A DNA stretch of 47,377 bases from Planctomycetia bacterium (GCA_005776365.1 SXPK01000181.1:1-47377); one strand, 5' to 3'. Shown: positions 1 to 13,779, counted from the stretch's first letter. Program-made: numbers and translations. The notes: a model not told the origin generated them from the sequence alone.

Positions 1-39
1 GCCGCGGCGCTCAGCAAGCTCAACCTGCGGCGCAACTGA
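1..39 (+). CDS. tex: 3' end (last 12 codons plus TGA) of a Tex/YhgF-like S1-domain transcription accessory protein; the gene body lies upstream of the window
   Basis: Frame 1 reads [12 protein letters not shown]. The same 49-nt block recurs at 3189-3237, where it ends a 112-codon fragment ([40 protein letters not shown]). That fragment matches the C-terminal S1 domain of E. coli YhgF/Tex. Whether this copy belongs to the intact gene cannot be seen from the window. Confidence 0.55.
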   Translation, partial: AAALSKLNLRRN

Positions 40-234
40 GCGCCGCGGGTCCGCGTTCGCAGCGGCGCGATCAGCAACCCGTGGGCGAGTGGATTCGTCG
101 TCGAGCGAGTTGCAGCCGAGTCGAGATCAAGAAGTGCGACCGGAGTCGAATCCACGCTTTCGGCGCAACTCGCACGACTCAGAGGTCAGCCCGGATATCG
201 CGCTCGCAGGCAGCATGCGCTCTTCCACGCGCTG

Positions 235-519
235 TCAGCGCTTCTGCGCCAAGAGGACCCGAATCACCTGCGGCGAGGCAGCGACGCCTGCGCGCAGTGA
301 AGCCGCCGTCCGCCCGACGAGAACAGGGCCGTCTTGCGTGGTCCGTGCCTCCACCAGCAGCGAGCTCTCTCCTTCAGGCAGCCAGAACTCGAATGGCTGC
401 AGGATGGCGTTGCGGAGAAGCGGGATGTCAAAACCGAACTGCTCGCTCACGAGTCGCACAACTCCGGCTGTCGGCCTGGGGCCTGCGCTGTCGACGCTCG
501 CTTCGAACCTGCACCTCAC
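235..519 (-). pseudogene. Displaced duplicate of the last ~94 codons (including stop) of the 547..2175 gene; orphan C-terminal cassette
   Basis: VRCRFEA..GVVRLVSEQFGFDIPLLRNAILQPFEFWLPEGESSLLVEARTTQDGPVLVGRT..VIRVLLAQKR* aligns residue for residue with the C-terminus of the 542-aa protein (VKCRYEA..GVVRLQNAELGLDVPFLRNNAMQPFEFLLPEGENSVVVEARTTQEGPVLVGRT..VVQVLLAPKR*). It is in the same frame, 312 nt downstream. The 'start' is a GTG that corresponds to an internal Val. Confidence 0.6.
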
Positions 520-546
520 CAGGCGAGGCTGCTTCGAGCGCGAACT

Positions 547-2175
547 TCAGCGCTTCGGAGCCAGCAGCACCTGAACCACCGGCTGCGGCGCAGAACCATC
601 GGCGCGAATCGTGATCACAGTGCGCCCCACGAGAACTGGCCCCTCCTGCGTCGTGCGCGCCTCGACAACCACCGAGTTCTCACCCTCGGGCAAGAGGAAT
701 TCGAATGGCTGCATGGCGTTGTTCCGGAGGAACGGGACGTCGAGACCCAACTCCGCGTTCTGGAGTCGAACCACCCCGGCCGACGGCCACGGCCCTTCGC
801 CGTCGAATCGCGCCTCGTACCTGCACTTCACCAAATTGCGATCGAACACCACCCTTGCCTCGGCCCTGCCCCCCTTGGCAAGCGTGACCGTTGCAGCGGA
901 CTGCGCCTTGGCCAAGGCCTGAAGCACATCGTCGTAGAAATCCACGCGCCACGTCCCGGTCGGGAGTGTCATCCAACCATCCGTGTCCTCCCCCTTTGGC
1001 TTCACTAGGAGGTTGCGGTCGCCCGGCCAGTCCTGTGTGAGGTCCCCGATCAGTCGAAACATCGAATCCGGCAGCCTCTTCCCAGCAGCATCCGTGACGA
1101 CCGCTCGGAGGCTACCGAATCCATCGTGTAGTGCACCGCGCGGCGGCTCGATCCTCTGGGGCGCAACAAACTCGTCAGCGGGAACTGCCTTGCAGGTGGC
1201 CACGAACGGTTGGCGTCCGGCAATCCACAAGGTAACGCGCGGATCCCAGACTTGCGCCGTTCCCGCCGGGTAGGCCGGGAGGGCCATCGTGACGACCGCA
1301 TCGGGAAACTGCTTCTGGATGCGTGCCGCGATGCGGTCGCACGTCCACGACGCTTCTCCGTTCTCAGGGAGGCACAGCGAGTTGCCCAGCAGTTGCGCCT
1401 TCCAGGTCACGACTCCGGACTCAGGAAGATCCACTGCAATCACGCGAGGGGTCAGGAATCTCGCGGTCACTGTGTGCCGACCGGCATCACGAAAGACAAT
1501 ACTCCTCCCCTCTTCCTGCGCATGTTTGCAGAAGGCGCGATCCTCATGCATGCCCTGCAGAAACAGGATACCTGCTGCCGGGAACTCGAAAGGGCCGATG
1601 CTCGCCCTCCCCATCTCGTCGGTGACAGCAGACGGAGCCGAGTCCTCCGACATCAGTTCGGCTCGAGGCATTCGGTAAGGTCGGACCCAGAATCTGGCGC
1701 CCGACAATGGTCGAGACTCATCGAGCACCGCCTGTATGTCGATCGTGATCGCCGGACGCAGACGCACAATTGTGTTATCGCCAGTCAGTTCCACCTCTTC
1801 TTCAGGCAAATAGCTGTCATGGGAGACTCCGATGGCATGCGCCATCGCCGTGGGAACGAAGCTGACATTGCCCGCTTCGTCGGAGACATGCTCGACCCCA
1901 TCGTATCGCACCACGGCCCCGCGAACTGGCCGATTGTCGCGCGTCAGAACCTGCACGATGGCTCGCGTGAGCGAGATGCGATCCGTAGCTGGATTGGTAG
2001 GAACCTCCCCAGCCAGGGCCGTGGATCGAGACTCGCCGCTTCCACCAATCCCTGCGCCGGAAGGGAGCGTCGCCGGGACGTCGCGACCGACTTGCATCAG
2101 GAGCCATACGACGAGCGCTGCCCCGGCGAGCAGAAATGCACCAGCCGCCAGCCGCGCCCGCACTACCCCTGACAC
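547..2175 (-). CDS. Membrane-anchored exported protein with CarboxypepD_reg/Ig-like beta-sandwich domains (hypothetical)
   Basis: 542-aa ORF. N-terminal TM/signal anchor (RARLAAGAFLLAGAALVVWLL). The stretch IVQVLTRDNRPVRGAVVRYDGVEHVSDEAGNVSF resembles the carboxypeptidase-regulatory-like fold. The start overlaps the upstream gene by 13 nt. Confidence 0.75.
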   Translation of the reverse strand: MSGVVRARLAAGAFLLAGAALVVWLLMQVGRDVPATLPSGAGIGGSGESRSTALAGEVPTNPATDRISLTRAIVQVLTRDNRPVRGAVVRYDGVEHVSDEAGNVSFVPTAMAHAIGVSHDSYLPEEEVELTGDNTIVRLRPAITIDIQAVLDESRPLSGARFWVRPYRMPRAELMSEDSAPSAVTDEMGRASIGPFEFPAAGILFLQGMHEDRAFCKHAQEEGRSIVFRDAGRHTVTARFLTPRVIAVDLPESGVVTWKAQLLGNSLCLPENGEASWTCDRIAARIQKQFPDAVVTMALPAYPAGTAQVWDPRVTLWIAGRQPFVATCKAVPADEFVAPQRIEPPRGALHDGFGSLRAVVTDAAGKRLPDSMFRLIGDLTQDWPGDRNLLVKPKGEDTDGWMTLPTGTWRVDFYDDVLQALAKAQSAATVTLAKGGRAEARVVFDRNLVKCRYEARFDGEGPWPSAGVVRLQNAELGLDVPFLRNNAMQPFEFLLPEGENSVVVEARTTQEGPVLVGRTVITIRADGSAPQPVVQVLLAPKR

Positions 2176-2606
2176 TTACATGCCTCCACCCAGGCGCCGG
2201 GGAAAGCAAACAGGTGATTGGCAGAGCACTTGAACGTCTCTGTAGGGCACGCCTGTAGCTCCGTGCATTCTACAGCGGACGTCTGTTGATCCTCTTCGAA
2301 GTCGGGATTGATCACTTTCCCGCTGCAGTAGCAGTTCGGGGCCTTGTAGGACCCATCTGCCTGGAGGCATCCACACACTCGCACTTGGGTGCCGTCCGCG
2401 AGCACGGTTGGGATGTTCAGACAAGCACCCTCTCCCGGTAGGCAATTGGAATTGCAGTTCGCGACCTCCCACTCGAGAGAGAACCAGTTGAAGCGCACCT
2501 GCACCGTGCAGTAGCACGGATCCGACTGCGCCATCAACGATCCATCGAGCACGAATGCCACCGCCACAACGAGCACAGACGCCACTCTGGAGTTCCAACT
2601 TCTCAT
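2163..2606 (-). CDS. Small secreted cysteine-rich protein (147 aa, 14 Cys in the mature part, four CxC motifs)
   Basis: Signal peptide MRSWNSRVASVLVVAVAFVLDGSLMAQS. The mature region contains CYC (twice), CGC and CKC motifs. Local GC is about 58% by hand count of line 2221-2280, lower than core genes. It overlaps the next gene by 13 nt. Confidence 0.7.
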   Translation of the reverse strand: MRSWNSRVASVLVVAVAFVLDGSLMAQSDPCYCTVQVRFNWFSLEWEVANCNSNCLPGEGACLNIPTVLADGTQVRVCGCLQADGSYKAPNCYCSGKVINPDFEEDQQTSAVECTELQACPTETFKCSANHLFAFPGAWVEACKCQG

Positions 2607-2791
2607 ACTTGGACAGTACCCCGCCCCCCCCTTGCTCAGTCAAGACCGGGGAACATGCATCGCCAAGGGTAGTTGAAACCGGGAGGCGGCTCCCTGTCTG
2701 CGGCACGTTCGACTGAACCTCGTCCTCGAGCCACGGGGTTGAAGGCGACTAGAGCTCCGTCGCCAGAGAGGCACCTCGCCGCCCCACTCCC

Positions 2792-2887
2792 TCACCCGCT
2801 GCGCTGCTTCGGCGGCGTGCGGAAGCCCTTCCGCACGGGCTGCATCTGCCCCATCTCCGGCGGCGGCGTCTCGAAGCCGAGCGCGTA
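2792..2887 (-). pseudogene. Fragment: last 31 codons plus stop of the membrane/TPR-like gene whose intact copy is at 11641..12375
   Basis: The 96 nt are about 95% identical to 11641-11736 (5 mismatches by eye). It encodes YALGFETPPPEMGQMQPVRKGFRTPPKQRSG*, versus ..YALGFETPPPEMGQMQPVRKGFRTPPKQRGG* in the intact gene. Homology ends abruptly at 2887. Confidence 0.85.
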
Positions 2888-2888
2888 G

Positions 2889-3227
2889 CAGGACGGCCTC
2901 GTGCACATCAGCCAGCTGTCGGATCGCTTCGTCGAGGACCCGCGCGAAGTCGTCAAGGCCGGCCAGATCGTCCAGGTCAAGGTCGTCGAGGTCGACATCC
3001 CGCGCCAGCGCATCGCGCTGACGATGAAGCTGCACGAACGGCCGGCGGCGGGGCGCGGCGACAGCCACGCGACCGCAGGCTCGGGCGGCGCGCGCAGCAG
3101 CGGCGGCAGTCGCGATCCGCGCGGCAACCGCGACCTGCGGCCCGCGCCGGCTCCGCGCAAGCCCGAGCCCGAGGTCGTGAGCCCGCTCGCCGCGGCGCTC
3201 AGCAAGCTCAACCTGCGGCGCAACTGA
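2889..3227 (+). pseudogene. tex: Fragment: C-terminal 112 codons (partial S1 domain plus tail) of tex
   Basis: It starts inside the conserved S1 motif (..[64 protein letters not shown]) with no N-terminal Tex domains. It is fused 1 nt away from the TPR-like gene fragment. Its last 49 nt are identical to 1-49. Confidence 0.85.
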
Positions 3228-3380
3228 GCGCCGCGGGCGAGGTGTCCTCCGCAGAAGGACAGCTTCGACCCACGGCCTCGACACACTGCAGGACCAACCC
3301 ATCGGCAGCGACAAGGTGCGCCGCCACTGCATGCCGTCCGTCCCCCACGCCGTCAGGAAGAGCTACAGCCCTCGCCAACA

Positions 3381-4283
3381 TCAGTTTGCAGGCAGCTCGA
3401 TCGCCAATGCGGGGCGGAAGCCGATGAAGTCTCGCCGCGCATGCTGGTGCAGGCTGGCGCGCTGGGAAAGCTTCGCCCCATCGGCGTCAGCGACCCAGGA
3501 ACCACCCACCAGCTCGTAGTGGGAATGCGTGTGGTTGGCGACCAAGCACCATTCCTCGACGTTGCCCACCAGATCGAAGAAGCCCGCGGCGTTCGGGGCG
3601 AAGCTCCCCACCGGAGCAATCACCGCATAGCCATCGTCGCACGGCACCGGCACGTTGAACTCCGGGAAACGACGAGCGCCGGCGCGGTCCTGCAGGTTGG
3701 CGTGTCGACAGGCATCCCCGCCTTCATCACCCCAAGGGAATCGCGTCGCCGCTCCGGCGCGAGCTGCGCGCTCCCATTCGGCCGCCGTTGGCAGGCGGAG
3801 CCCGAAGTGAGCAGTGAAGGCCACGGCATCGGCAGCCGAGAGATACAGCACCGGCAGATCGTCGCGCAGTTCCTCGGTGCCGAGCAGCGGGAAGATCCGG
3901 CTCCAGTTCGCCTGCTCGTGCCACTCGCGACCGCCCGCAGACGTCGCCGTGAACGCGCCGACAGCAGGATGGTCAGGGTCGTCGAGCACACCCCGTTCGG
4001 CATCGCTGCGGTAGCCGGTCTCGGCCACGAACCGCCGCCAGCTGCCCACGGTGAGTTCGGTTTCGGCCAGAAACAGCGCGTTCGCGGATGCATCCCCGGG
4101 CACCAGCCGCAGAACCACACCGCTGCGACGATGCGTCGCTCGCTTCGGCAGTCCGCTCCTGGCGTCGACACCAGCCGTCGGGTCCGGCTCGAGATCCGCC
4201 AGCGATATCGGTTTCGCAAGGGACGCGCAGCCTGCGCAGAGAAGGGCGAACAGAGCGCTCGCTACCAGACGGAGGTGTGACAT
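3381..4283 (-). CDS. FGE-sulfatase (SUMF1/formylglycine-generating enzyme family) domain lipoprotein
   Basis: I chose the start at MSHLRLVASALFALLCAGCASL (lipobox-like LCAGC), giving 300 aa. C-terminal motifs VGNVEEWC, LVGGSWV and FIGFRPAL are typical of PF03781. The longer ORF to 4400 would run through the tex-repeat copy. Confidence 0.8.
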   Translation of the reverse strand: MSHLRLVASALFALLCAGCASLAKPISLADLEPDPTAGVDARSGLPKRATHRRSGVVLRLVPGDASANALFLAETELTVGSWRRFVAETGYRSDAERGVLDDPDHPAVGAFTATSAGGREWHEQANWSRIFPLLGTEELRDDLPVLYLSAADAVAFTAHFGLRLPTAAEWERAARAGAATRFPWGDEGGDACRHANLQDRAGARRFPEFNVPVPCDDGYAVIAPVGSFAPNAAGFFDLVGNVEEWCLVANHTHSHYELVGGSWVADADGAKLSQRASLHQHARRDFIGFRPALAIELPAN

Positions 4284-4335
4284 GAGATCGCCTTGCGTCA
4301 CGGACGCCAGGGACAGGCAGTCTACGTAACTGCAC

Positions 4336-4406
4336 GCCGCCCCGAGCCCGAGGTCGTCAATCCGCTCGCGGCGCAGCTGGCGAAGCGCAACCTGCGGCAC
4401 AACTGA
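4336..4406 (+). pseudogene. tex: Short diverged fragment of the tex 3' end (last ~21 codons plus stop)
   Basis: Reads PEPEVVNPLAAQLAKRNLRHN*, versus [21 protein letters not shown] in the other copies. It is followed by the same gcgccgcggg block, then t-cgc-ttcgca as after copy 1. Confidence 0.7.
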
Positions 4407-4433
4407 GCGCCGCGGGTACGCATTCGCACTCCG

Positions 4434-6056
4434 TCACCGCAGCCAGAAGTCGCGCCGCGCGGTCCATACATCGAGGCCGGTCGCCGGATCCAGCACCAGC
4501 CACTGCACGGCAAAGCGACGGCCGCCGATCGTAGCGGGCAGCACCGGCAGGTCGAAGGCGGCATAGCCGCGGTCGATGCCGGACACGCCGGTCGTCTTTG
4601 CGCCGACGAAGTCCATCGGCACGAGCAGGGAACAGCCGGGGAAGCCGAATCCGTCGAGGCCGATGGGCAGGGACAGGCCACCCGTCGTCGTGGCGACGCC
4701 GTCGCCGAGGATGCACCACGCGAGCGCGCCCGGGGGTGCGTTCGCGATCTGCAGGCGGGAGCCGGTCGGCGTGGACCGGAAGCCGGGGACCATCGCGGTG
4801 CCGAGGTTGGCACAGGCGGAGCCGGACAGGGTGGAGCGGCGCGGTTCGCTGCGCCAAGCCTGGATCGTGCCAGCACCCTGTCCATAGTCGAGGAAAGTCA
4901 ATGCATGCACAGGGTGAGGGCTCCCCGGCTGGACTCCGAGTTCCGCCACGAACAAACCATAGTCGCCTTGCACCGGGAATCGACTCTGCTGCGTGTGGTG
5001 CAGGATAGCCCCGTCCCTCGACGAGATCACCTGCACTGCGCCCCAGACATATTGTTCGGGCTGGCATCCGGGACACGCAAACAGCACGTCGGGAATGCCA
5101 TCGAGATCCGCGTCGAACTTGGCGCTGACTGGCGAGCCAAGCTGGAAGTTCGGGTCCTGCCAGACTCGGATGATGGAGCCATCGGCCCCGGACCATGCGA
5201 CTGCAACCTGCCGTTGCGAGGCCACACTGTCGGCGTTGCTCGCCAAGTAGTCTGCGACGCCGTCCAGGTCGAGGTCTCCCGCCAGAGCGACGGTGCCACC
5301 GAGCAAGTCATAGGCTTGCAGGCCGGGATGGAATCGCAGCAGTGTCCCGGTTCGCCCCGAATACAGGAACGCCCCGCCTTCGGCTCTTGCCCCACCGATG
5401 GCGCCGACGAGGAAGTCCTCGCCACCGTCCCCATCTCGATCGCCGACGTTGGCGATGCTCTGGATCACCCAGCCGTGGACCGATGCCGGGATGACGTAGC
5501 GGAGCGCGCCGAGGTGATCGTAGGCGTAGAGGCTGGAATCGAAGGAGCGCGCCGTCGCGGCCAGGAGGTCACTCAGTCCGTCGCCATCGAGATCGATGCG
5601 TGGCTCCTTCGCGAAGCCGAACATGCCAGGGCCGGGCGGGAGAAGATTGAACAGTTCGATTCCCCGCCGGGGGGAGTAGACATGGATCACGAAGCTCGAT
5701 GACCATGTGTACTCGTCGTAGCCATCGCTGTCGAAATCACCGGCCCATTGCGGGTTGTCGATGCCCCAGAACAGCATGTGCTGATGGAGTTGGGATCCAT
5801 CGCGTCCCGACAGGATGCAGACGCTGATTTGCGTGACCGGGCCTTGGCCCGCGCTGCGGTAGGCAAGCAAGTCGCGATAACCGTCGCGGTCGTGATCGCC
5901 GAAGGCCGAGCATGCGTTGTAGCCGGAGTATGCGGCCGCCGGGATCTCCCAAATCATCTGTTGCCCCAGCAGAACTCCGGCCGGGAAACAATGCGTAATC
6001 AACCACCTCGACCAGTCCATGGCAACCGGCCTCCTCAGTTGACGATCTGGATCCAC
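4434..6056 (-). CDS. FG-GAP/VCBS repeat (integrin-alpha-like beta-propeller) protein with a C-terminal shared module
   Basis: Repeated Ca-binding-like loops: GDHDRDGYRDLL, GDFDSDGYDEY, DLDGDGLSDLL, GDRDGDGGEDFLVG, GDLDLDGVADYL, FDADLDGIPDVL. The start is uncertain (6056, or the Met at 6020). It overlaps or abuts the upstream gene end at 6035. Confidence 0.8.
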   Translation of the reverse strand: MDPDRQLRRPVAMDWSRWLITHCFPAGVLLGQQMIWEIPAAAYSGYNACSAFGDHDRDGYRDLLAYRSAGQGPVTQISVCILSGRDGSQLHQHMLFWGIDNPQWAGDFDSDGYDEYTWSSSFVIHVYSPRRGIELFNLLPPGPGMFGFAKEPRIDLDGDGLSDLLAATARSFDSSLYAYDHLGALRYVIPASVHGWVIQSIANVGDRDGDGGEDFLVGAIGGARAEGGAFLYSGRTGTLLRFHPGLQAYDLLGGTVALAGDLDLDGVADYLASNADSVASQRQVAVAWSGADGSIIRVWQDPNFQLGSPVSAKFDADLDGIPDVLFACPGCQPEQYVWGAVQVISSRDGAILHHTQQSRFPVQGDYGLFVAELGVQPGSPHPVHALTFLDYGQGAGTIQAWRSEPRRSTLSGSACANLGTAMVPGFRSTPTGSRLQIANAPPGALAWCILGDGVATTTGGLSLPIGLDGFGFPGCSLLVPMDFVGAKTTGVSGIDRGYAAFDLPVLPATIGGRRFAVQWLVLDPATGLDVWTARRDFWLR

Positions 6057-8044
6057 CCTGCCGGCGAAGGAACACCTCCCGCCGTCAGGACGAACACCAT
6101 GTAGTAGCCTCGCGGAGCCAAGGCCTCCTGAGGCATGGAACAGATCACGCTGGACGTGCCCCCATTGAGTTCGATGGTGCCGCCGATCTGCTCCAGCTCG
6201 ATGTAGCGTGCGTGCATGTCGCTGTGGTGGGTCAGGGACCCCGGCGCCATCAGCACGACCTTGCCCATGCCGACTTGCTTCGGCAACCTCAGGCTGATGG
6301 TCAGTGGCGAGCTGTAGAGCAGCTGCACCGAGCCGTCGGGATTCGTACCAGGACTGGTCGACTGCGTGATCCCGAGGATCGTCGGCCGTGGGCGCGTCAT
6401 GTACCAGGGAGAGTAGATCTCGTAATCGAATGACGGCGAGCCCAGACTGTGTCGACCTTCTCCACCCCCCACGAGGACACGCCCGTCCGGCAGAAGCAGC
6501 GCTGTTGCATGGTATAGGCGCGGAGTCGACGCCGAGGGGAGCAGACCCCAGACCCCGTCCTTGAACAGTTCGGCCTCTCTTGCAATCGTCGCCAACTGTG
6601 GGTTGTTCACTGAGTCGATGCCACCGACTGCTAGTATGGAGGCGTCAGGAAGGATGAGCGCATTCAACCAGCCACGGGCATGGATCATATCCTCGCCCTC
6701 CCACCAGGGCGTGCCGGACGCCCCAGCGGCATCGAAGATTGCCTCCGTGGTGCTCGTCGCGGGACTGAAGGCAGGCGCAAAAGGCGATCCGACGAACCCG
6801 CCAATTCGGGCAATAAAGTCGGTCTGCGTGCCCGAACGGGCGAACAACACGCTTGCTCCATCGTGACGAGTCACCCAGGAGGCAGGGGGATTCCCGAGCC
6901 CGATGCTGCTCTGGCCGGTGAAGTAGTTCCAAGTGCCGGCTTGCGACGGCGGCACCTCGTGTTGCGTCTTGGCCGAGAGTGGCTCGTAGCCACTCATGAA
7001 CACCTCCGCGGAGGTGAGCCAATGCATACGGGGGTACTCTTCGAGCTCCTGGACTCCCGAGCCGTTGTCCGGCCCCTCAAAAGTGAAAATAGGCCCCTGC
7101 GAACCCGGGACGGAGTCAGGCTGAAGGCCTTGCTGCGTAGCCGGAACTGTGGGGTTGAGTACCCTCAGTGCCTCATAGGTGTTCCAAGTCGGATTCTGGG
7201 CAGGCGCGCCACCGATCACGATGGAGCCACCGCTCACCAGGGCAACCTCGCGTCCCGCAGTTCGGTTGAGTCGACTCGTGAGCGTCACCGTCGGGTAGTA
7301 GCTCCGATCCGCAAGCGCAGGCCCATAGATCCACTTGCCATGTGCTCCACCGTAGAGAGCTTGCCCCGTGAAGTCGTTGGTCCAGGTGTTCCCCAGAAGT
7401 TGCGGCCAGGCCTGCCCCACCTCGTCCGGCCGGTATAGCATCACGATCGCCGTTCCTTGCGTCCCGTTGGAGTCGCCGCCTGCGACAATCAGATCGCCGT
7501 ATGGCGACCAACAGTGCCCTGCGCAGAACAGTCCCTCCACGACCCAGTTCTCGGGGGCAGGAGTGATGACGATCGGATGAACAGGGAGCAAGAAGTTCTG
7601 GAAGCGTGGCCCCGTCGGAGCCACGGCAGGATCGACGATCGACCAACACTGGAATGACCACGGCTGGTTGCCTGCGGCGTAGGAGCCATTGGGCTGCCGC
7701 ATGTACTTTCGCGAGTCCCAGACGATCACCTTGCCTCGGTCCTTGCCGCGCGGGATGAGCGACATGTGAATCGCGTTGAACCGGGCATCGAAGTCGGCGG
7801 AGTATGCGGTCGACCCTGGAAAAGGCTGCAGGTGATCCGTTGCGGACGCATGTGGCGAAACCTCATGGTTGAACGCCATTGTCCACTGACCCAGATACGG
7901 ACTCGCCTGCGCGTCAACGACATCACCTACGCAGACTGACGTCAGCAGCGCACTAAGTGTCCCCAACCAACCCTTCCGACCGAACATCGAGCTCACATGC
8001 CTTCCTCGGTTCATGGTGCTACTCCGGGCATCGAGATCGCGCAT
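6035..8044 (-). CDS. Glyoxal oxidase / galactose oxidase-like copper radical oxidase family protein (kelch-like propeller plus DUF1929 E-set C-terminus)
   Basis: 669-aa ORF with a signal-like N-terminus (GWLGTLSALLTSVCVG). LYHATALLLPDGRVLVGGG and the C-terminal YYMVFVLTAGGVPSPAGWIQI are typical of Glyoxal_oxid_N plus DUF1929 proteins. The start may be an internal Met (about 8014). Confidence 0.75.
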   Translation of the reverse strand: MRDLDARSSTMNRGRHVSSMFGRKGWLGTLSALLTSVCVGDVVDAQASPYLGQWTMAFNHEVSPHASATDHLQPFPGSTAYSADFDARFNAIHMSLIPRGKDRGKVIVWDSRKYMRQPNGSYAAGNQPWSFQCWSIVDPAVAPTGPRFQNFLLPVHPIVITPAPENWVVEGLFCAGHCWSPYGDLIVAGGDSNGTQGTAIVMLYRPDEVGQAWPQLLGNTWTNDFTGQALYGGAHGKWIYGPALADRSYYPTVTLTSRLNRTAGREVALVSGGSIVIGGAPAQNPTWNTYEALRVLNPTVPATQQGLQPDSVPGSQGPIFTFEGPDNGSGVQELEEYPRMHWLTSAEVFMSGYEPLSAKTQHEVPPSQAGTWNYFTGQSSIGLGNPPASWVTRHDGASVLFARSGTQTDFIARIGGFVGSPFAPAFSPATSTTEAIFDAAGASGTPWWEGEDMIHARGWLNALILPDASILAVGGIDSVNNPQLATIAREAELFKDGVWGLLPSASTPRLYHATALLLPDGRVLVGGGEGRHSLGSPSFDYEIYSPWYMTRPRPTILGITQSTSPGTNPDGSVQLLYSSPLTISLRLPKQVGMGKVVLMAPGSLTHHSDMHARYIELEQIGGTIELNGGTSSVICSMPQEALAPRGYYMVFVLTAGGVPSPAGWIQIVN

Positions 8045-8194
8045 TCCCTGCGCGTGGGATTTGGCAACCCAGCCCGGTCGAGGTCGAACGAGCCGTTACC
8101 GACCGGGCTAATGTTCCGGGGCGGACCGAATCGGTCAACCCCTGCGGCGCAAGCGGAAGCTCGCATGGCACCAAGCGGGGTTCGCAGGCCCTCT

Positions 8195-8489
8195 CCTCGC
8201 GGATCCGAGGGAGGCCGTGAAGGCGGGGCAGATCGTGCAGGTGAAGGTGCTGGAGGCGGACCTGCCGAGGCAGCGCATCGCGCTGACGATGGAGCTGCAC
8301 GAACGGCCGGCTGCGGGGCGCAGCGACAGCCACGCGGCCGCAGGCTCGGGTGGCACGCGCAGCAGCGGCGGCTACAGCGTCGGCGGCAATCGCGACCCGC
8401 GGCCCGCGCCGGCTCCGCGCAAGCCCGAGCCCGAGGTCGTGAGCCCGCTCGCCGCGGCGCTCAGCAAGCTCAACCTGCGGCACAACTGA
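8195..8489 (+). pseudogene. tex: Fragment: C-terminal ~97 codons of tex (diverged allele)
   Basis: ..[48 protein letters not shown]. By eye it is about 97% identical to copy 2889-3227 over the last ~120 nt. Identity falls to about 70-75% in the S1-coding 5' part, with many synonymous changes. Confidence 0.85.
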
Positions 8490-8708
8490 GCGCCGCGGGC
8501 AGGGCCGGGGCACGCGTTGATCGCAGCCAGCGGTCTCGGCACGCGCGTTGGGCGCACGCCGCGACATCGACATCGGCGGGGACATTCCCGCATCGCCATC
8601 GATCTTCGGCCCGCTTCCACACTCACGCGGAACACAGCGCGAGGCCGCGCCGTCGGCTGCGGCCTCCGCCAGGACCGCAGACACTGGGACGCCTTGGCGC
8701 CTTGATTT

Positions 8709-8727
8709 TTCGAACTAGTAGTTCGAA
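8709..8727. promoter_or_regulatory. AT-rich perfect 8-bp inverted repeat (ttcgaact-agt-agttcgaa), 13 nt upstream of the ATPase start; candidate operator/promoter element
   Basis: Read directly: ttgatttttcgaactagtagttcgaatattcaacctcgATG. This is the only markedly AT-rich patch in the region. Confidence 0.35.
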
Positions 8728-8739
8728 TATTCAACCTCG

Positions 8740-9894
8740 ATGACCTCTCGCACCAAGCCGTTGGCGCGACTCACGGCCCTTTTCCGCGAGTTCCCCGTGG
8801 TCGCAATCCTAGGGCCGCGTCAGGTCGGCAAGACAACGCTTGCGGGGCAATACGCAGAGTCGTCGTCCGGTCCGGTGCACACGTTCGACCTCGAGCGGCC
8901 TGCGGACCTTCGCAAACTCGCCGACCCGATGCTGGCTCTCGAGGACCTGACCGGCCTCGTGGTGCTCGACGAGATCCAACGCTTGCCGGAGGTCTTCCCC
9001 GCGCTGCGCGTCCTGGCCGACCGCCCGAGACGCAAGGCGCGGTTCCTCGTCCTCGGCAGCGCGTCCCCGGAGCTGCTGGCGCAGAGCAGCGAGTCGCTTG
9101 CTGGCCGCATCGCATACCTGGAACTGAACGGCTTCCAGCCTGCGGAAGTAGGCCCCAAGCTCGTCGATCGCCTGTGGTTGCGCGGCGGATTCCCTCGCTC
9201 GTTCCTGGCGCGCAGTGACGCGGCGAGCTTCACCTGGCGCGAAGAGTTCGTTCGGACCTTCCTCGAGCGGGACCTGCCCCAATTCCGCGTGGCGACTCCG
9301 GCGACGACGATGCGCCGCTTCTGGACGATGCTGGCCCACTACCACGGCCAGATCTGGAACGCATCCGAACTTGCGCGCTCGCTGGGCCAGAGCGACCCGA
9401 TGGCGCGTCGCTACCTCGATGTGCTGGCAAACACGCTCGTCGTGCGTGTGCTGCAGCCCTTCCACGTCAACCTGAAGAAGCGGCAGGTGAAGTCCCCCAA
9501 GGTCTACATCGCCGACTCGGGGTTGCTGCACGCACTGTTGGGGCTGCCGACCACGGATGCCCTGCGCGGACATGCGCGCGCAGGAGCATCGTTCGAGGGC
9601 TTCGCGATGACTGCGGTCATCGAAGCGCTCGAGGCTCGACCCCACGAGTGCTTCTTCTGGGCGACATTCAGCGGGGCAGAACTCGATCTCTTGGTGCAAC
9701 GAGGGGATCGGCGCGTGGGATTCGAGTTCAAGCTCTCGTCAGCTCCAGAACTCACGCCCTCGATGAAGATCGCGCTCTCAGATCTCGAACTGCGGCATCT
9801 CTGGGTCGTGCACGCCGGCAAGGACGTGATCCGACTCGCCCCGCAAGTGACCGCGATCCCGCTCGCGCAGGTTGCGACGACGCGGCTGTGGTGA
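8740..9894 (+). CDS. AAA-type ATPase with DUF4143 domain (ATP-binding protein)
   Basis: Walker A (ILGPRQVGKTTLA), Walker B-like (LVVLDEIQRLPEVF) and a DUF4143-like region (KVYIADSGLLHALLG). Confidence 0.85.
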   Translation: MTSRTKPLARLTALFREFPVVAILGPRQVGKTTLAGQYAESSSGPVHTFDLERPADLRKLADPMLALEDLTGLVVLDEIQRLPEVFPALRVLADRPRRKARFLVLGSASPELLAQSSESLAGRIAYLELNGFQPAEVGPKLVDRLWLRGGFPRSFLARSDAASFTWREEFVRTFLERDLPQFRVATPATTMRRFWTMLAHYHGQIWNASELARSLGQSDPMARRYLDVLANTLVVRVLQPFHVNLKKRQVKSPKVYIADSGLLHALLGLPTTDALRGHARAGASFEGFAMTAVIEALEARPHECFFWATFSGAELDLLVQRGDRRVGFEFKLSSAPELTPSMKIALSDLELRHLWVVHAGKDVIRLAPQVTAIPLAQVATTRLW

Positions 9895-10086
9895 ACGCAA
9901 TGCGCGGAGCCCTGCAGTCCCGCGCATAGCAGCCAGACCCTCGCGATCCGCGGCACCCCGCGCCCTTCGCCAGCCCCCCCGCCGGGCAAGGTGCCCGAAA
10001 CCACAGAATCCGCGTGCTATCGCGTGCGCGCATGCAGGAACGGTCCTTCCCGGGGCAACCCAAGCCCAACCGAGAGACCGAACGCC

Positions 10087-11538
10087 ATGTCCACCGCCTC
10101 GATCCGCCTCCTCGCCCCCTTCGCCCTGTGCGCCGCCGCGGCAGCCCAGTTCCAAGAGGGCCTCATCACCTTCTCCGCGGCCGAGCAGACGCTGTCCGGC
10201 AGCGGCGGCACCGTGCTGCGCGCCCTGCGCCCCAACGAGACCAACGTCATCGAATGGGGCACCACCTCGGCATGCGCGACGCTGTCGGCCGAGAAGTGGG
10301 CGCCGCGCACCGCCTACGGCACGATGGCCGGTGACGAGAACGCGGACGGCCTGCTCAACAACGCGACGCTGTTCGGCTCCGTCGACGCGCTGGTCAGCAC
10401 GAGGAACGCGGGCGGATCCGGCTGGCAGAACCAACGCACGGTGTTCTGGTCGGTGTCGGCGCCGATGGGCAACGCGGTCAGCGCGCAGCCGTTCCGCCCC
10501 GGCGACGTCGCGCGCATCGTGCGCACGCCGCTCTTCATCGACGGCCAGGTCGAGCACTTCATGCGCATGGAGCAGTTCAACCAGGCGCTCGGACTGCCGC
10601 TCCTCACGCCGATCGACGTCGACGCGATCGCCTTCGACCCGCAGTTCGGCGTCTACTTCTCGCTCGACGCGGACATCGTCTGCAACACGGCCTGCGGGCC
10701 GATGCTGGTGCAGGATGGCGCGGTGGTCTGCGTGCCGCCGATGGCGCTGACCTACACGCCCGACATGCGCATCGCCGCCGTCGCGCCGAACAGCGCAATC
10801 GTCGTGCTGACCGAGCCGCAGATCGACGCCATGACGCTGAATGCCGGCGTCACCAATCGCTTCGGCGCGTGCCTGACGAACGCCATCGATCTCGAATCGC
10901 TCGAGTTCGACATGTCCTCGCCGGTGACGCCGTGGTTCGGCTGCACGGCCGGACTCGCAGTGTTCTCGACGCAACTGATCTTCTCGGTCGAGACCGGCAC
11001 CGGCGCCAGCCTGCTGACGACCAACGGCGGCGGACAGATCTGGAACGGCCCGTGCTCGCCGATGGGACGCCCCTGCGGCTCCGGCCCGACGCTCGGCATC
11101 CAATCCGGCGTCCGCCCCGTCAGCGGCAACGTCGGCTGCGTGAGCTACGTGAACGCGTTCCTGCTCGAGCACACGAACCGCTACGTGCTCGAACCGCAGA
11201 ACCACGTGCTGACCGTGTTCCCGGCTGGCGCGCCCGCGGGCTCGACCAACATCGACGTCGGCTCGCCGTTCCCCTTCAACTTCGTGTTCGTCGAAGTCGT
11301 CTCGCCGATCGTGCCCGCCTCGCTGCCGGCCTTCCCCTTCTCGCAGATGTTCTTCCCCGATCTGTATGCGACGAGCCTGACCTTCTACACGACGACGACG
11401 GCTGTCGGCGGCTTCGGCAGCTTCCCGATGCCGGCGATCCCGCCGGGGTTCAGCGGCAAGGTGCTGTTCCAGAGCGTCGGAATCTCGACTGCAGGAACGT
11501 TCGAACTGAGCACGCCGGCGCTCATCGACGTGATGTGA
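10087..11538 (+). CDS. Secreted hypothetical protein (483 aa) with the C-terminal shared module
   Basis: I chose the start at MSTASIRLLAPFALCAAAAAQ (signal peptide). No recognisable catalytic domain. The C-terminus (..FPMPAIPPGFSGKVLFQSVGISTAGTFELSTPALIDVM) resembles the tails of 4434..6056, 23896..25959 and 26086..28935. Confidence 0.75.
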   Translation: MSTASIRLLAPFALCAAAAAQFQEGLITFSAAEQTLSGSGGTVLRALRPNETNVIEWGTTSACATLSAEKWAPRTAYGTMAGDENADGLLNNATLFGSVDALVSTRNAGGSGWQNQRTVFWSVSAPMGNAVSAQPFRPGDVARIVRTPLFIDGQVEHFMRMEQFNQALGLPLLTPIDVDAIAFDPQFGVYFSLDADIVCNTACGPMLVQDGAVVCVPPMALTYTPDMRIAAVAPNSAIVVLTEPQIDAMTLNAGVTNRFGACLTNAIDLESLEFDMSSPVTPWFGCTAGLAVFSTQLIFSVETGTGASLLTTNGGGQIWNGPCSPMGRPCGSGPTLGIQSGVRPVSGNVGCVSYVNAFLLEHTNRYVLEPQNHVLTVFPAGAPAGSTNIDVGSPFPFNFVFVEVVSPIVPASLPAFPFSQMFFPDLYATSLTFYTTTTAVGGFGSFPMPAIPPGFSGKVLFQSVGISTAGTFELSTPALIDVM

Positions 11539-11562: not shown

Positions 11563-11596
11563 AACGGCCGCTGCGGCACATGCCGCGGCGGCCGTT
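11563..11596. terminator. GC-rich hairpin between convergent genes (candidate bidirectional intrinsic terminator)
   Basis: aacggccgctgcggc-acat-gccgcggcggccgtt forms a 15-bp stem with one G-T mismatch. It is followed by gttcgtttgt, and lies between the stop at 11538 (+) and the stop at 11641 (-). Confidence 0.55.
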
Positions 11597-11640
11597 GTTC
11601 GTTTGTAGTGGCTCGCGATCTCACGCCAGCGACGCGCCGC

Positions 11641-12375
11641 TTACCCGCCGCGCTGCTTTGGCGGCGTGCGGAAGCCCTTCCGCACCGGCTGCATCTGCCC
11701 CATCTCCGGCGGCGGCGTCTCGAAGCCGAGCGCATACCACACGACGCCGAATGGCTTCATCGACATCTTCTTGCCGTTCTGCAGGCGCAGCAGGTTGTCC
11801 TTGCTCGCCTCGGCAGTGAGATTCTTTCGTGTAAATCGGGACAGCACCGCAATCGCGTCGCCAATGCGCTCATCTCTTGCGAGCAAGAAGCCGTGCACGT
11901 TGTGCAGCAACTCGTGCTTCTTGCTGAATGCAGAAGCCAGATGCAGGGTCTGGAATGCGGCAGCCTTGTCGCCTCCCTTGTATTGCATCACGCCAAGCAC
12001 GATCTGCCCGTCGGGAAGGCGCCGGGACGACTTCTTGAGCAGGTCCAATGCCTCGTCGCGCTTGCCCAGCTGATAGGCAATCATGCCCATCTGCGCATAG
12101 ATCTGGCCTTCGAGCAGCGGCATCCATTTGCCGCGAGGCAGCATCGCGCGAAGGCTCTGCATCGCGAGATCTGGCATGCGCGCCTCGAGCTGCTTCTGCA
12201 CGGTCAGCATCATCGGTTGCAGCTTCTTGCCGACGCGGCGAACGATCACGATCCAGGCTGCAAGGGTCAGCACGAGCGAGAACAGGATGGCCCAGACCCA
12301 GTGCCACCAGTCGAGGGCGAAGCCGCCGAATCCAATGAGGAGGCCGATAGCCGCGGAAAGTAGGACAGAGTGCAT
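11641..12375 (-). CDS. Membrane protein with two N-terminal TM helices and a TPR-like cytoplasmic/periplasmic region (hypothetical)
   Basis: I chose the start at MHSVLLSAAIGLLIGFGGFAL (244 aa); the ORF extends to 12420. Helical repeat-like region: GQIYAQMGMIAYQLGKRDEALDLLKK. Its 3' 96 nt are duplicated at 2792-2887. Confidence 0.75.
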   Translation of the reverse strand: MHSVLLSAAIGLLIGFGGFALDWWHWVWAILFSLVLTLAAWIVIVRRVGKKLQPMMLTVQKQLEARMPDLAMQSLRAMLPRGKWMPLLEGQIYAQMGMIAYQLGKRDEALDLLKKSSRRLPDGQIVLGVMQYKGGDKAAAFQTLHLASAFSKKHELLHNVHGFLLARDERIGDAIAVLSRFTRKNLTAEASKDNLLRLQNGKKMSMKPFGVVWYALGFETPPPEMGQMQPVRKGFRTPPKQRGG

Positions 12376-12471: not shown

Positions 12472-13779
12472 GTGGACAGTCCACGACCCATGCCAAGACG
12501 GACCCGCTGGACCTTGCTGTGGCTAGCACTCGCAGCGATCGTGGTCATCCGCGCAGGCGATCGAAAGCCGCACCGTGGCGTGATCCTCGACCACCTGGAG
12601 TTCGGCCGCAGGCTCATGGCCGGCGAGGATGTCTACGCGACCTGGAAGTCCGATCTCGACGCGCCAAGCAAGCCGCTGCACGCGCCCTATCCTCCGTCGT
12701 TCGGCCTGCTCACAGCGCCATTTTCGATCGTGCACGAGACGCTCGGGCTGACTACCGCGCGCGTCACCTGGGCGTTGCTGCAAGTGCTCGCGATCCTGCT
12801 ATTGCTGAGGGCGATCTGGCGCATGCCGTTGCCACCACCCTCGACCAGCGAACAGGAGCGCCGCTGGATTTCGCTTCTTGTGCTGCTGCTGTTGTCGCGA
12901 TTGTTGCTGCGCGACACGCACGGCGGCGGCGGCAACCTGATCAATGTCGCGATGTGCGCGATCGCGTTCGCAGACGCCGAGCGCGGAAAGGAAGCTCGCG
13001 CCGGTTGGTTGCTCGGGTTCTCGCTCGCAACCAAGCCGACGCAAGCGTTCCTGTTGCCGCTGTTTTTCCTACACGGCCGCAAGCGCACCGTCGGCCACGC
13101 GCTGCTCTGCGGCGCGTCGTGCGTCGGGCTCAGCCTGTTGTTGCTGCGCGGCGACGTGGCGCCGTGGCTGCGTTGGCTCGAGGGTTCGCTCGCGCTCGCG
13201 CAACAGACCGACGCGTTTGCAGCGCCGGCGCTGCAGTTTCCGGAGTTTGAATGGATGAACCAGTCACTGCGTTGCGCGACGGCGCGGTGGATCAGCGAGG
13301 TCCCGCCCGAGTTCGCGCAGCGCGTCGCGTGGGGCGTGATGCCGGGCCTTGGCCTTTCCGCTACTGCCGCGTCTTGGTCCGCGCGGGCCATCTTGTTTGC
13401 GATGCTCGCATGGCTGCTCACAGCCGCATGGGGCGCACGCCACGTCATCAATGCCGCCGAGTCTCCATCGCGCGCCAACTTGCGCACGCGACAGTTCGCC
13501 GCCGCGCTCGCGTTCTCGCTGCTCGCGTCTCCTCTCAGCTGGAAAGGGCACCACGTCGCGCTCGTGCCGATGTTCTGTCTGCTGTGCTTGCACTCATGGC
13601 GGACGAAGTCGCGGAGCACCATCGCGTTGCTCGCCGCTTGGTTTCTTTGCTGCGGCATCGGGCAAGCCATCATCAGCGACGACGGCGATGAGTGGCTCAA
13701 CAGCGTCTACGTGATGCCGGCATTCGACGTGTTGCTGTTCGTCGCGTTGTTGCGAGCACGCAGCAACGCTTCTCAGTGA
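12472..13779 (+). CDS. Polytopic membrane glycosyltransferase, GT87/DUF2029 (PimE-like mannosyltransferase) family
   Basis: More than 9 predicted TM segments, an N-terminal loop (RLMAGEDVYATW) and a GGGGNLINVAMCAIAF segment typical of DUF2029. The start is GTG 12472 or ATG 12490. Confidence 0.7.
   Translation: MDSPRPMPRRTRWTLLWLALAAIVVIRAGDRKPHRGVILDHLEFGRRLMAGEDVYATWKSDLDAPSKPLHAPYPPSFGLLTAPFSIVHETLGLTTARVTWALLQVLAILLLLRAIWRMPLPPPSTSEQERRWISLLVLLLLSRLLLRDTHGGGGNLINVAMCAIAFADAERGKEARAGWLLGFSLATKPTQAFLLPLFFLHGRKRTVGHALLCGASCVGLSLLLLRGDVAPWLRWLEGSLALAQQTDAFAAPALQFPEFEWMNQSLRCATARWISEVPPEFAQRVAWGVMPGLGLSATAASWSARAILFAMLAWLLTAAWGARHVINAAESPSRANLRTRQFAAALAFSLLASPLSWKGHHVALVPMFCLLCLHSWRTKSRSTIALLAAWFLCCGIGQAIISDDGDEWLNSVYVMPAFDVLLFVALLRARSNASQ

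Follow-up and report, generated by a model that had tools for sequence, protein, structure and literature searches.

Genes can be gained beside a conserved bacterial gene by insertion with long target duplication, a process whose mechanism is unsettled (Nobusato/Kobayashi, 2000; Furuta et al., 2010, PMC2853133). The direct repeats at such insertions are 30 to about 420 bp long, derive from the target, are present once at the empty site and often overlap the 3′ end of a gene, and mobility genes are absent (PMC2853133). One listed case, a Type IIS restriction-modification (RM) system of Neisseria gonorrhoeae with ~104-bp repeats, was recognised through comparison with a 'tex gene' record of Neisseria cinerea (PMC2853133, Table 3). 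Here we describe an arrangement of this general kind in a 47,377-nucleotide (nt) stretch of DNA from a Planctomycetia bacterium (GCA_005776365.1, SXPK01000181.1:1-47377; hereafter the window, in which positions are counted from the first letter). Four same-strand copies of the 3′ end of tex punctuate the interval between tex and a convergent gene for a TPR protein. We consider it more probable than not, at roughly 0.6, that this interval is a recombinase-free hotspot of gene gain in an uncultured clade of Planctomycetota, and that the tex copies are scars of serial 3′-end displacement.

The elements that carry this argument are given below. Groups of genes between the tex copies are termed islets, the three internal copies are termed fragments 2 to 4, their upstream joints are J1 to J3, and sequences from relatives carry L numbers.

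1..49, + strand: tex gene end; the window begins inside the gene; 100% identical to 3189-3237
2791..2890, − strand: copy of the TPR gene 3′ end, 100 nt, including the stop codon; 94% identical to 11640-11739; abuts tex fragment 2
2881..3237, + strand: tex fragment 2; begins at QDGLVH in the S1 domain and includes the stop codon and hairpin; 91% identical to L002 tex
4336..4416, + strand: tex fragment 3; last 81 nt, 'N-type' allele; J2 at 4335/4336
8150..8499, + strand: tex fragment 4; unambiguous from 8194, with decay and partial deletion in the stretch that begins at about 8150; joined at J3 to 'up', the upstream region of islet 3
11641..12375, − strand: TPR gene, convergent with tex and forming the right-hand core flank of the hotspot; homologues have 244 amino acids (aa)

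The likeness to insertion with long target duplication lies in repeats of more than 30 bp (here 81-349+ nt) that are single-copy at the empty site of L090, and apparently of L088/L089, and in inserts of less than 20 kb without mobility genes (the islets here measure 1.1-3.8 kb). In contrast to the RM cargo of those insertions, the present locus holds genes for FGE-sulfatase, FG-GAP and galactose-oxidase-like (GO-like) proteins, a PDC-S01-like ATPase and uncharacterised proteins. Furthermore, three successive events have accumulated at a single site, the repeats represent distinct alleles instead of near-identical copies, the gene end of the convergent neighbour is part of one junction, and the phylum is Planctomycetota.

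Displacement of 3′ ends is also known from Rhs/CdiA C-terminal tips, for which a circular intermediate has been proposed in the case of Rhs (Jackson et al., 2009, PMC2935791), and from type VI secretion system (T6SS) effector-immunity arrays of V. cholerae, where displacement is sequential and homology-facilitated illegitimate recombination (HFIR) has been proposed (Kirchberger et al., 2017, PMC5361080). As in those systems, a conserved 5′ core would act as the homology anchor, a new 3′ end is inserted together with downstream genes, and no integrase is present. Orphan 3′ ends, each with a stub of the core, likewise lie downstream (fragments 2-4 here, and also a remnant at 235-546). The displaced tips of Rhs, CdiA and T6SS proteins are polymorphic toxins with immunity genes, and the orphans are reusable, whereas the displaced tex ends are near-synonymous by-products with tails near-identical in protein sequence, and the variable cargo consists of separate genes, mostly on the opposite strand.

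Experimental evidence for HFIR comes from Acinetobacter, Pseudomonas stutzeri, S. pneumoniae and E. coli conjugation (PMC3240628). The present case may share with it one-sided homology and a microhomology join near the anchor, without a site-specific enzyme; here the microhomology is ACCA(G) at J1 and only 2-3 nt at J2. However, the experimental products usually delete recipient DNA, whereas at tex the recipient end is duplicated, and the present case is known from sequence alone. Hotspots of horizontal gene transfer between core genes without mobile elements have been described statistically (Oliveira et al., 2017, PMC5635113). Gene turnover within one core-gene interval, the lack of a recognisable mobile element and the implied homologous recombination of the flanks recur here, but this locus keeps junction-level scars of single events.

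At fda of Streptococcus thermophilus, elements such as ICESt1 and ICESt3 form arrays by accretion of integrative elements and cis-mobilizable elements (CIMEs), with islets lying between direct repeats of the gene 3′ end. In arrays of this type, the repeats are att sites, which are short and have a crossover core at a constant position, and the array or its relatives encode a tyrosine integrase. The present locus is similar in that the target gene 3′ end is reconstituted and direct repeats flank the islets, and some units of those arrays also lack an integrase of their own. Unlike them, it shows no fixed crossover core, and no tyrosine or serine recombinase was found by Pfam in the window or in relatives. 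Nor does it resemble an integron: a search of the window and of the tex flanks of L002 and L004 gave no intI-like gene (the region upstream of the window's tex lies outside it), the repeats consist of true tex coding sequence and vary in length, and most cargo genes face them.

The pattern has already been described in other bacteria; this instance is notable for the stacking, the readable junctions, the intermediate states and the natural population. Gene gain at hotspots without mobile elements is usually inferred only statistically. This locus keeps a stack of three dated events with readable junctions and a fourth within an islet gene, and its empty site and intermediate states are available in related genomes. 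The phenomenon is thereby extended to a housekeeping gene and to Planctomycetota, in which, to our knowledge, little about gene transfer is established.

Four copies of the tex 3′ end share an end point

A first-pass annotation, made from the sequence of the window alone, had reported four copies of the tex 3′ end in the same orientation. Self-BLAST and a repeat finder recovered all four, at 1-49, 2929-3238, 4341-4416 and 8194-8500. The copy starts given earlier needed correction at two places. Copy 2 can be extended 5′ to 2881/2889 and starts at 2881-2889, within a microhomology, and copy 4 continues as decayed tex back to about 8150.

By self-BLAST, 8194-8500 matches 2929-3238 with 87.7% identity over 310 nt (E 3e-106), 4341-4416 matches 3162-3237 with 84%, and 8451-8499 matches 1-49 with 98%. 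The identity of copies 1 and 2 over 49 nt, as first reported, is 100%. The gradient described for copy 4 is real near the stop codon, where its last 118 nt are 97% identical to copy 2, but its 5′ part is 85% identical and not 70-75%. Copies 2 and 4 have an 83-nt exact match in common, copies 1 and 2 agree exactly over at least 49 nt, and the longest exact match of copy 3 to any other copy is 29 nt at most. Because neither method found further repeats of such size in the other 35 kb of the window, the four-copy pattern is far beyond chance.

The translation of copy 2 comprises the C-terminal two-thirds of an S1 domain (Pfam S1, E 2e-10) and a Gly/Arg/Pro-rich tail, and full Tex genes in relatives confirm that the copies correspond to the Tex C-terminus. 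Every copy ends in ...CAACTGAGCGCCGCGGG, which is the 3′ arm of a hairpin. At 24-49 this hairpin reads CCTGCGGCGC / AACTGA / GCGCCGCGGG and folds with an 11-bp stem, and the TGA stop codon (37-39) lies in the loop. The stop-codon hairpin folds in each context; in L090 its place is taken by a different and shorter stem. It is not a canonical U-tract terminator, and in a promoter and terminator scan the site counts equalled the shuffled expectation.

The single end point claimed for all copies holds within 0-3 nt, although some copies match beyond it. Copies 1 and 3 have 13-15 nt more in common, and copies 3 and 4 about 45 nt more, which in the latter case are a remnant of an FG-GAP gene 3′ end.

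Junction J1 fuses the TPR and tex gene ends

Three elements were missing from the first-pass annotation: the TPR-end copy at 2791-2890, the FG-GAP remnant at 8510-8545 and the remnant at 235-546. The first of these forms J1 with tex fragment 2. Alignment of the junction places J1 at 2881-2890, on a microhomology of 4-5 nt, ACCA(G), that is found in both parents; the TPR parent reads ...GCGCATACCA(C/G)A... and the tex parent ...GTGCACCAGGACGG... The TPR fragment is 97% identical to the TPR gene of L092 and 96% identical to that of L001, versus 94% to the window's own TPR gene.

As an end-to-start (b|a) join, J1 has the form expected of a circularised fragment or a tandem event, and a join of this form is not producible by an error in de Bruijn-graph assembly. 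The TPR fragment shows that one putative incoming piece spanned the whole tex-TPR interval. The fusion of the TPR end with the tex end at a microhomology directly supports a circle, a tandem event or an illegitimate join on one side, and it speaks against an att-type reaction.

Relatives provide an empty site, alternative contents and nested junctions

A search with the TPR protein returned metagenome-assembled genomes of Planctomycetota and many homologues. In L090 (55% aa identity), tex and the TPR gene are convergent across a gap of 210 nt and tex occurs once. The tex end lies about 30 nt from the TPR gene in L088/L089, whose contigs end inside tex, such that this empty site is apparent only. 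In L092, the stop codon of the TPR gene lies only 4-6 nt beyond the fragment 4 hairpin. These small gaps indicate that the empty site is tight. Other relatives have the following gene orders.

L004: tex, FG-GAP gene, 'up' joined to a tex fragment, TPR gene
L086: FG-GAP gene, 'up' joined to a truncated tex fragment, ATPase gene, TPR gene
L002: tex, islet-1-like genes, ATPase remnant, 515-aa gene, TPR gene; no internal tex copy
L001: FGE gene joined through J2 to fragment 3, 515-aa gene, TPR gene
L092: GO-like gene, 'up' joined to fragment 4, TPR gene
L006: 'up' joined to a tex fragment, then an FG-GAP 3′ end

At the L002 locus, Pfam identifies a full-length Tex gene, and the sequence after it is 98% identical to window 1-522. 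Alternative contents thus stand directly after full tex: the FG-GAP gene in L004 and islet-1-like genes in L002 and L005.

The junctions differ in how widely they are shared. J3 is present in five assemblies from different samples (the window, L092, L004, L086 and L006), and L092 is 98.6% identical to window 7796-8502 across it. The 'up'-tex join of L004, L086 and L006 leads into a longer fragment that starts about 470 nt before the stop codon, and fragment 4 of the window and L092 has internal deletions. J2 is present in two assemblies, the window and L001 (96.6% identity). Relative to the common end, the fragments start at about −470 (J3), −81 (J2) and −349 (J1). Junction sharing is nested, and by this order the youngest event would be the one nearest tex.

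Nested junctions in separate assemblies make misassembly of the junctions unlikely and indicate that the events were serial. The concern first raised, that the junctions might be assembly chimeras, is thus largely removed by the recurrence of J2 and J3 in assemblies from other samples. Similarly, the contents of the interval vary among relatives, and the one fixed four-copy structure that would have argued for an ancient arrangement was not seen.

When the fetched loci, among them about 80 distant tex loci, were each compared with themselves, no comparable tex-end duplicates appeared outside the clade; only the close relative L004 has one. The same comparison brought to light the L093 repeats described below. 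A metagenome scan with the tex fragment returned mainly distant tex genes, among which only L005 and L006 were informative; L095, a tex gene at a contig edge, was uninformative. An independent short-read contig from the Logan collection, L085 (SRR8894379), corresponds to window 8452-10218 with 100% identity. Its start and the start of the window both look like repeat-induced breaks, yet the source sequence of the window (50,276 nt) is longer than the window itself.

The fragments carry distinct tex alleles

The first-pass annotation had noted that copy 3 differs at the protein level (AQLAKRNLRHN). This difference is real, but it does not reflect decay. Fragment 3 carries the N-type substitutions of the tex ends in L005 and L088/L089, and thus represents a second natural tex allele (VNPLAAQLAK...). 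This second allele type covers the last ~60-80 nt of tex in L005 and L088/L089, and the tex gene of L005 is a mosaic in which the allele type changes about 70 nt before the stop codon.

Codon comparison of fragment 2 with real tex genes yields ratios of nonsynonymous to synonymous change (pN/pS) of 0.08-0.22, and pairs of real tex genes yield 0.18-0.27. The values for fragment 4 are 0.26-0.44. Between the window and L092 copies of fragment 4 the ratio is about 1, a value that comes from 4 differences only. Distinct tex alleles that bear the signature of purifying selection indicate that the fragments are displaced ends of once-functional genes. By this reading, the fragments would have evolved within working genes of different lineages and drifted after displacement.

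The last 81-100 nt of tex are 99-100% identical, including synonymous sites, among window 3137-3237, L002 5391-5470 and L004 13024-13104, whereas the whole tex genes of the same genomes are about 86% identical. This identity, together with the allele replacement, suggests either frequent exchange of the gene end or a nucleotide constraint imposed by the hairpin. Between L002 and L004, tex is 85.7% and the TPR gene 77.9% identical at the nucleotide level. The conservation of tex fits a recombination anchor that may itself be exchanged.

We also considered whether the fragments might be functional S1 mini-proteins. The idea was rejected because the S1 domain is truncated (profile position 29 of 74 onward), deletions are present and pN/pS is about 1 after displacement. 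Short 'S1-domain proteins' annotated beside tex should be regarded as pseudogene scars.

A model for serial displacement, and its alternatives

In the mechanism that we favour, the ancestral ends of tex and the TPR gene would have stood almost back to back. Donor DNA from a related lineage, carrying the conserved tex 3′ region, the hairpin and that lineage's own downstream genes, would recombine homologously within the resident tex, and the other donor end would be joined illegitimately, by way of a short microhomology, to a point before the stop codon of the resident tex. A circularised fragment inserted by one crossover in tex (Campbell-type) would yield the same product. The tex gene would be rebuilt with the donor end, and the resident end would be pushed downstream, where it would be dead and would decay by substitutions and deletions. 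Homology between donor and recipient would stop where the conserved gene and its hairpin stop, and the common end point would mark the survivors, namely joins that leave tex, the hairpin and the TPR gene intact. With a gap of 4-6 nt to the TPR stop codon, other end points would damage a core gene, and the shared end therefore needs no site-specific enzyme. The direction of transfer, the anchoring by homology and the linear or circular nature of the intermediate are the parts of this scheme that we infer.

Serial displacement next to tex without an integrase was already the proposal of the first-pass annotation. Its core is upheld by the empty site, the nested junctions, the distinct alleles with low pN/pS and the J1 microhomology. 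Its corollary, that each incoming DNA brings its own tex end, does not extend to every islet: the ATPase gene and the 515-aa gene lie between fragment 4 and the TPR gene without a tex copy of their own. The same signature occurs elsewhere, as the displaced C-terminus of a 542-aa gene (235-546) and as repeats of an RlmN-like gene in L093, which suggests that 3′-end displacement may be a recurrent outcome of gene gain in this clade.

Several points weigh against this reading. The real tex gene lies upstream of position 1 and outside the window, such that copy 1 can be compared over 49 nt only. No donor with a 'tex-hairpin-FGE' or 'tex-islet 1-TPR' adjacency was found, and the FGE homologues lie at unrelated loci. 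Clear microhomology is present at J1 alone; the 2-3 nt at J2 mean little at 66% GC. J1 was found in the window only and in no independent assembly. J3 is old and widely shared and shows traces of a former tandem unit (the 8510-8545 remnant and L006), which duplication in situ explains equally well.

Duplication in situ would proceed by unequal or microhomology-mediated exchange between sister chromosomes, in which segments from inside tex to a downstream point are duplicated and no foreign tex end takes part; one of the duplicated cargo copies would then have been lost, been replaced through homologous exchange between strains, or diverged. J1 suits this explanation as a classic b|a duplication joint with microhomology, the FG-GAP remnant after fragment 4 and the order in L006 look like parts of a tandem unit, and copies 1 and 2 are identical across the 49 nt that can be compared. 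We nevertheless regard it as unlikely, because the tex allele of fragment 3 differs from those of copies 1, 2 and 4, the TPR fragment resembles the alleles of L092 and L001 more than it does the resident gene, and divergence among the fragments is mainly synonymous. Moreover, the genes carried to the left and right of any one junction are unrelated, which demands extra replacement steps for every event. Less probable still is an enzyme acting in trans on the stop-codon hairpin (integron-, Xer- or HUH-like), or a set of decayed, CIME-like integrative elements whose integrase has been lost or is encoded at another site. In favour of this, every copy and several of the breakpoints between genomes fall within 0-3 nt of the hairpin base, the hairpin is conserved (apart from the different stem of L090), and islet arrays between direct repeats resemble accretion at att sites. 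However, the fragments start at three different distances from the end, one of them on a TPR microhomology, and the TPR fragment does not fit an att model. No recombinase gene was found in the window, in about eight tex-TPR intervals of related assemblies or upstream of tex in L002 and L004. The fixed end point is explained by the short gap to the TPR stop codon, and the pattern recurs without this hairpin in the L093 rlmN case and the 235-546 remnant. A dedicated gene-capture process, in effect an integrase-less 'integron', might dock at terminal hairpins or 3′ ends of conserved genes, at tex, the L093 rlmN-like gene and islet genes alike, with an enzyme encoded in trans cutting at the hairpin base or with single genes, of which the FGE unit would be one, arriving as circular cassettes; we give this idea very little credence.

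The order of the modules could also be partly chimeric, if co-existing strains had been threaded through shared tex ends during assembly. The 83-nt exact match of copies 2 and 4 and the match of at least 49 nt between copies 1 and 2 would permit this, L085 breaks 48 nt before the hairpin end just as the window starts 49 nt before one, and relatives show alternative continuations (copy 4 then TPR in L092, copy 3 then the 515-aa gene in L001). Against this, J1, J2 and J3 are each unique sequence without a shared k-mer, and so are not graph artefacts; J2 and J3 recur in independent assemblies from other samples; and copy 3 shares at most 29 nt exactly with the other copies. In addition, L085 links the A variant specific to copy 4 to the ATPase region with 100% identity. 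Threading through the 83-nt repeat could alter the module order but not the junctions, and even such a limited chimera seems to us most improbable. A retro-cassette, formed by read-through of an mRNA into antisense tex and reverse transcription, was discarded because no reverse transcriptase was found anywhere and J1 begins within TPR coding sequence.

Genes between the tex copies

The remaining features of the interval are listed below.

235..546, − strand: displaced C-terminal end of the 542-aa islet gene, left from an earlier allele like that of L002 (self-BLAST and L002 protein)
547..2606, − strand: islet 1; 542-aa gene (547-2175) and 147-aa gene (2163-2606); no Pfam family
3238..3380, strand not assigned: spacer with a second hairpin at about 3243-3270; related to the spacer after the L004 tex fragment
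3381..4335, − strand: FGE-sulfatase gene (3381-4283; Pfam PF03781, E 6e-36) with its 52-nt leader
4434..8193, − strand: islet 3; FG-GAP protein (4434-6056), GO-like protein (6035-8044) and upstream region 'up' (8045-8193); Pfam
8510..8545, − strand: FG-GAP-type gene 3′-end remnant; 8424-8545 is 77% identical to 4341-4461
8740..9894, + strand: AAA_14/DUF4143 ATPase (Pfam); PADLOC defence candidate PDC-S01, E 3e-81
9991..11538, + strand: 515-aa protein without a recognised family; strong terminator-like hairpin downstream, at 11563-11596

The remnant at 235-546 is 97.9% identical to residues 465-560 of the intact 560-aa protein of L002, whereas the rest of that protein is only 57.7% identical to the 542-aa protein of the window. 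Within the window, 235-521 and 547-833 are 72% identical. The remnant appears to be the product of the same 3′-end displacement, nested inside islet 1. Diverged homologues of islet 1 follow tex in L002 (65-68% nucleotide identity), and a related gene follows tex in L005.

The second hairpin, GGTGTCCT...AGGACA at 3243-3270, stands after tex fragment 2. Versions of it occur after the L004 tex fragment (~10800-10860) and beyond the truncated L086 fragment (~7894-7961), where the region forms a 68-nt inverted repeat. This region is probably part of an older tex-TPR spacer.

A single-gene FGE-sulfatase cassette at 3381-4283, between copies 2 and 3, had been recognised at first pass, and Pfam confirms it. 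The gene has 88-90% nucleotide identity to genes at unrelated loci in L093 and L094. Homology with L093 runs from the stop codon to a point about 55 nt before the ATG, which is the J2 junction (window 4338); homology with L094 also begins at the stop codon and reaches only about 20 nt past the ATG into the leader. By these limits, the FGE gene is a sharply bounded putative single-gene unit.

The FGE gene of L093, about 90% identical to that of the window, lies with a broken secreted-protein gene in a 2.1-kb insert flanked by 184-nt direct repeats (8617-8800 and 10939-11122, 91.8% identical); no recombinase is present. Each repeat corresponds to the 3′ end of an RlmN-like radical-SAM gene and stops about 10 nt past its stop codon. 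In the second repeat, the Cys of the catalytic motif is replaced by Ser.

The FG-GAP gene that directly follows full tex in L004 is 85% identical to that of islet 3, and the GO-like gene is missing from L004 and L086. The ATPase gene is present in L086, absent from L001 and L092 and internally deleted in L002, and this patchy distribution marks it as a variable single-gene unit in its own right. It is the sole PADLOC match, and to a candidate family, which rules out the whole locus as a defence island. No toxin or immunity families were found in the window by Pfam or PADLOC.

The islets have a GC content of 61-69%, versus 65.7% for the window, and so carry no foreign signature. The reported absence of integrase, transposase and tRNA genes from the window was reproduced by Pfam and a tRNA scan: no open reading frame (ORF) of the 47 kb matched an integrase, transposase or reverse transcriptase, and neither a tRNA nor a tmRNA was detected. 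Integrases, transposases and reverse transcriptases were likewise absent (Pfam) from the regions beside and upstream of tex in L002 and L004, where no tRNA gene adjoins tex either, and recombinase families from the Pfam lists of L086, L088-L090, L092 and L093. No Rfam family reached its gathering score across the whole window, and exact-protein look-ups of the FGE, GO-like, 147-aa and fragment-2 ORFs returned no match.

The 515-aa gene is present in L001 and L002 and not in L004, L086 or L092. The hairpin that follows it at 11563-11596 has a 15-bp stem and a T-rich tail, is conserved in L002 (760-793) and is the sole canonical-looking terminator in the first 12.6 kb. On the far side of the TPR gene, the upstream gene (window 12472-13779) encodes a GT87 glycosyltransferase in the window, in L001 and probably in L092, and an alanine racemase in L086, L088/L089 and L090. 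This difference among relatives indicates that the other flank of the TPR gene has been rearranged too.

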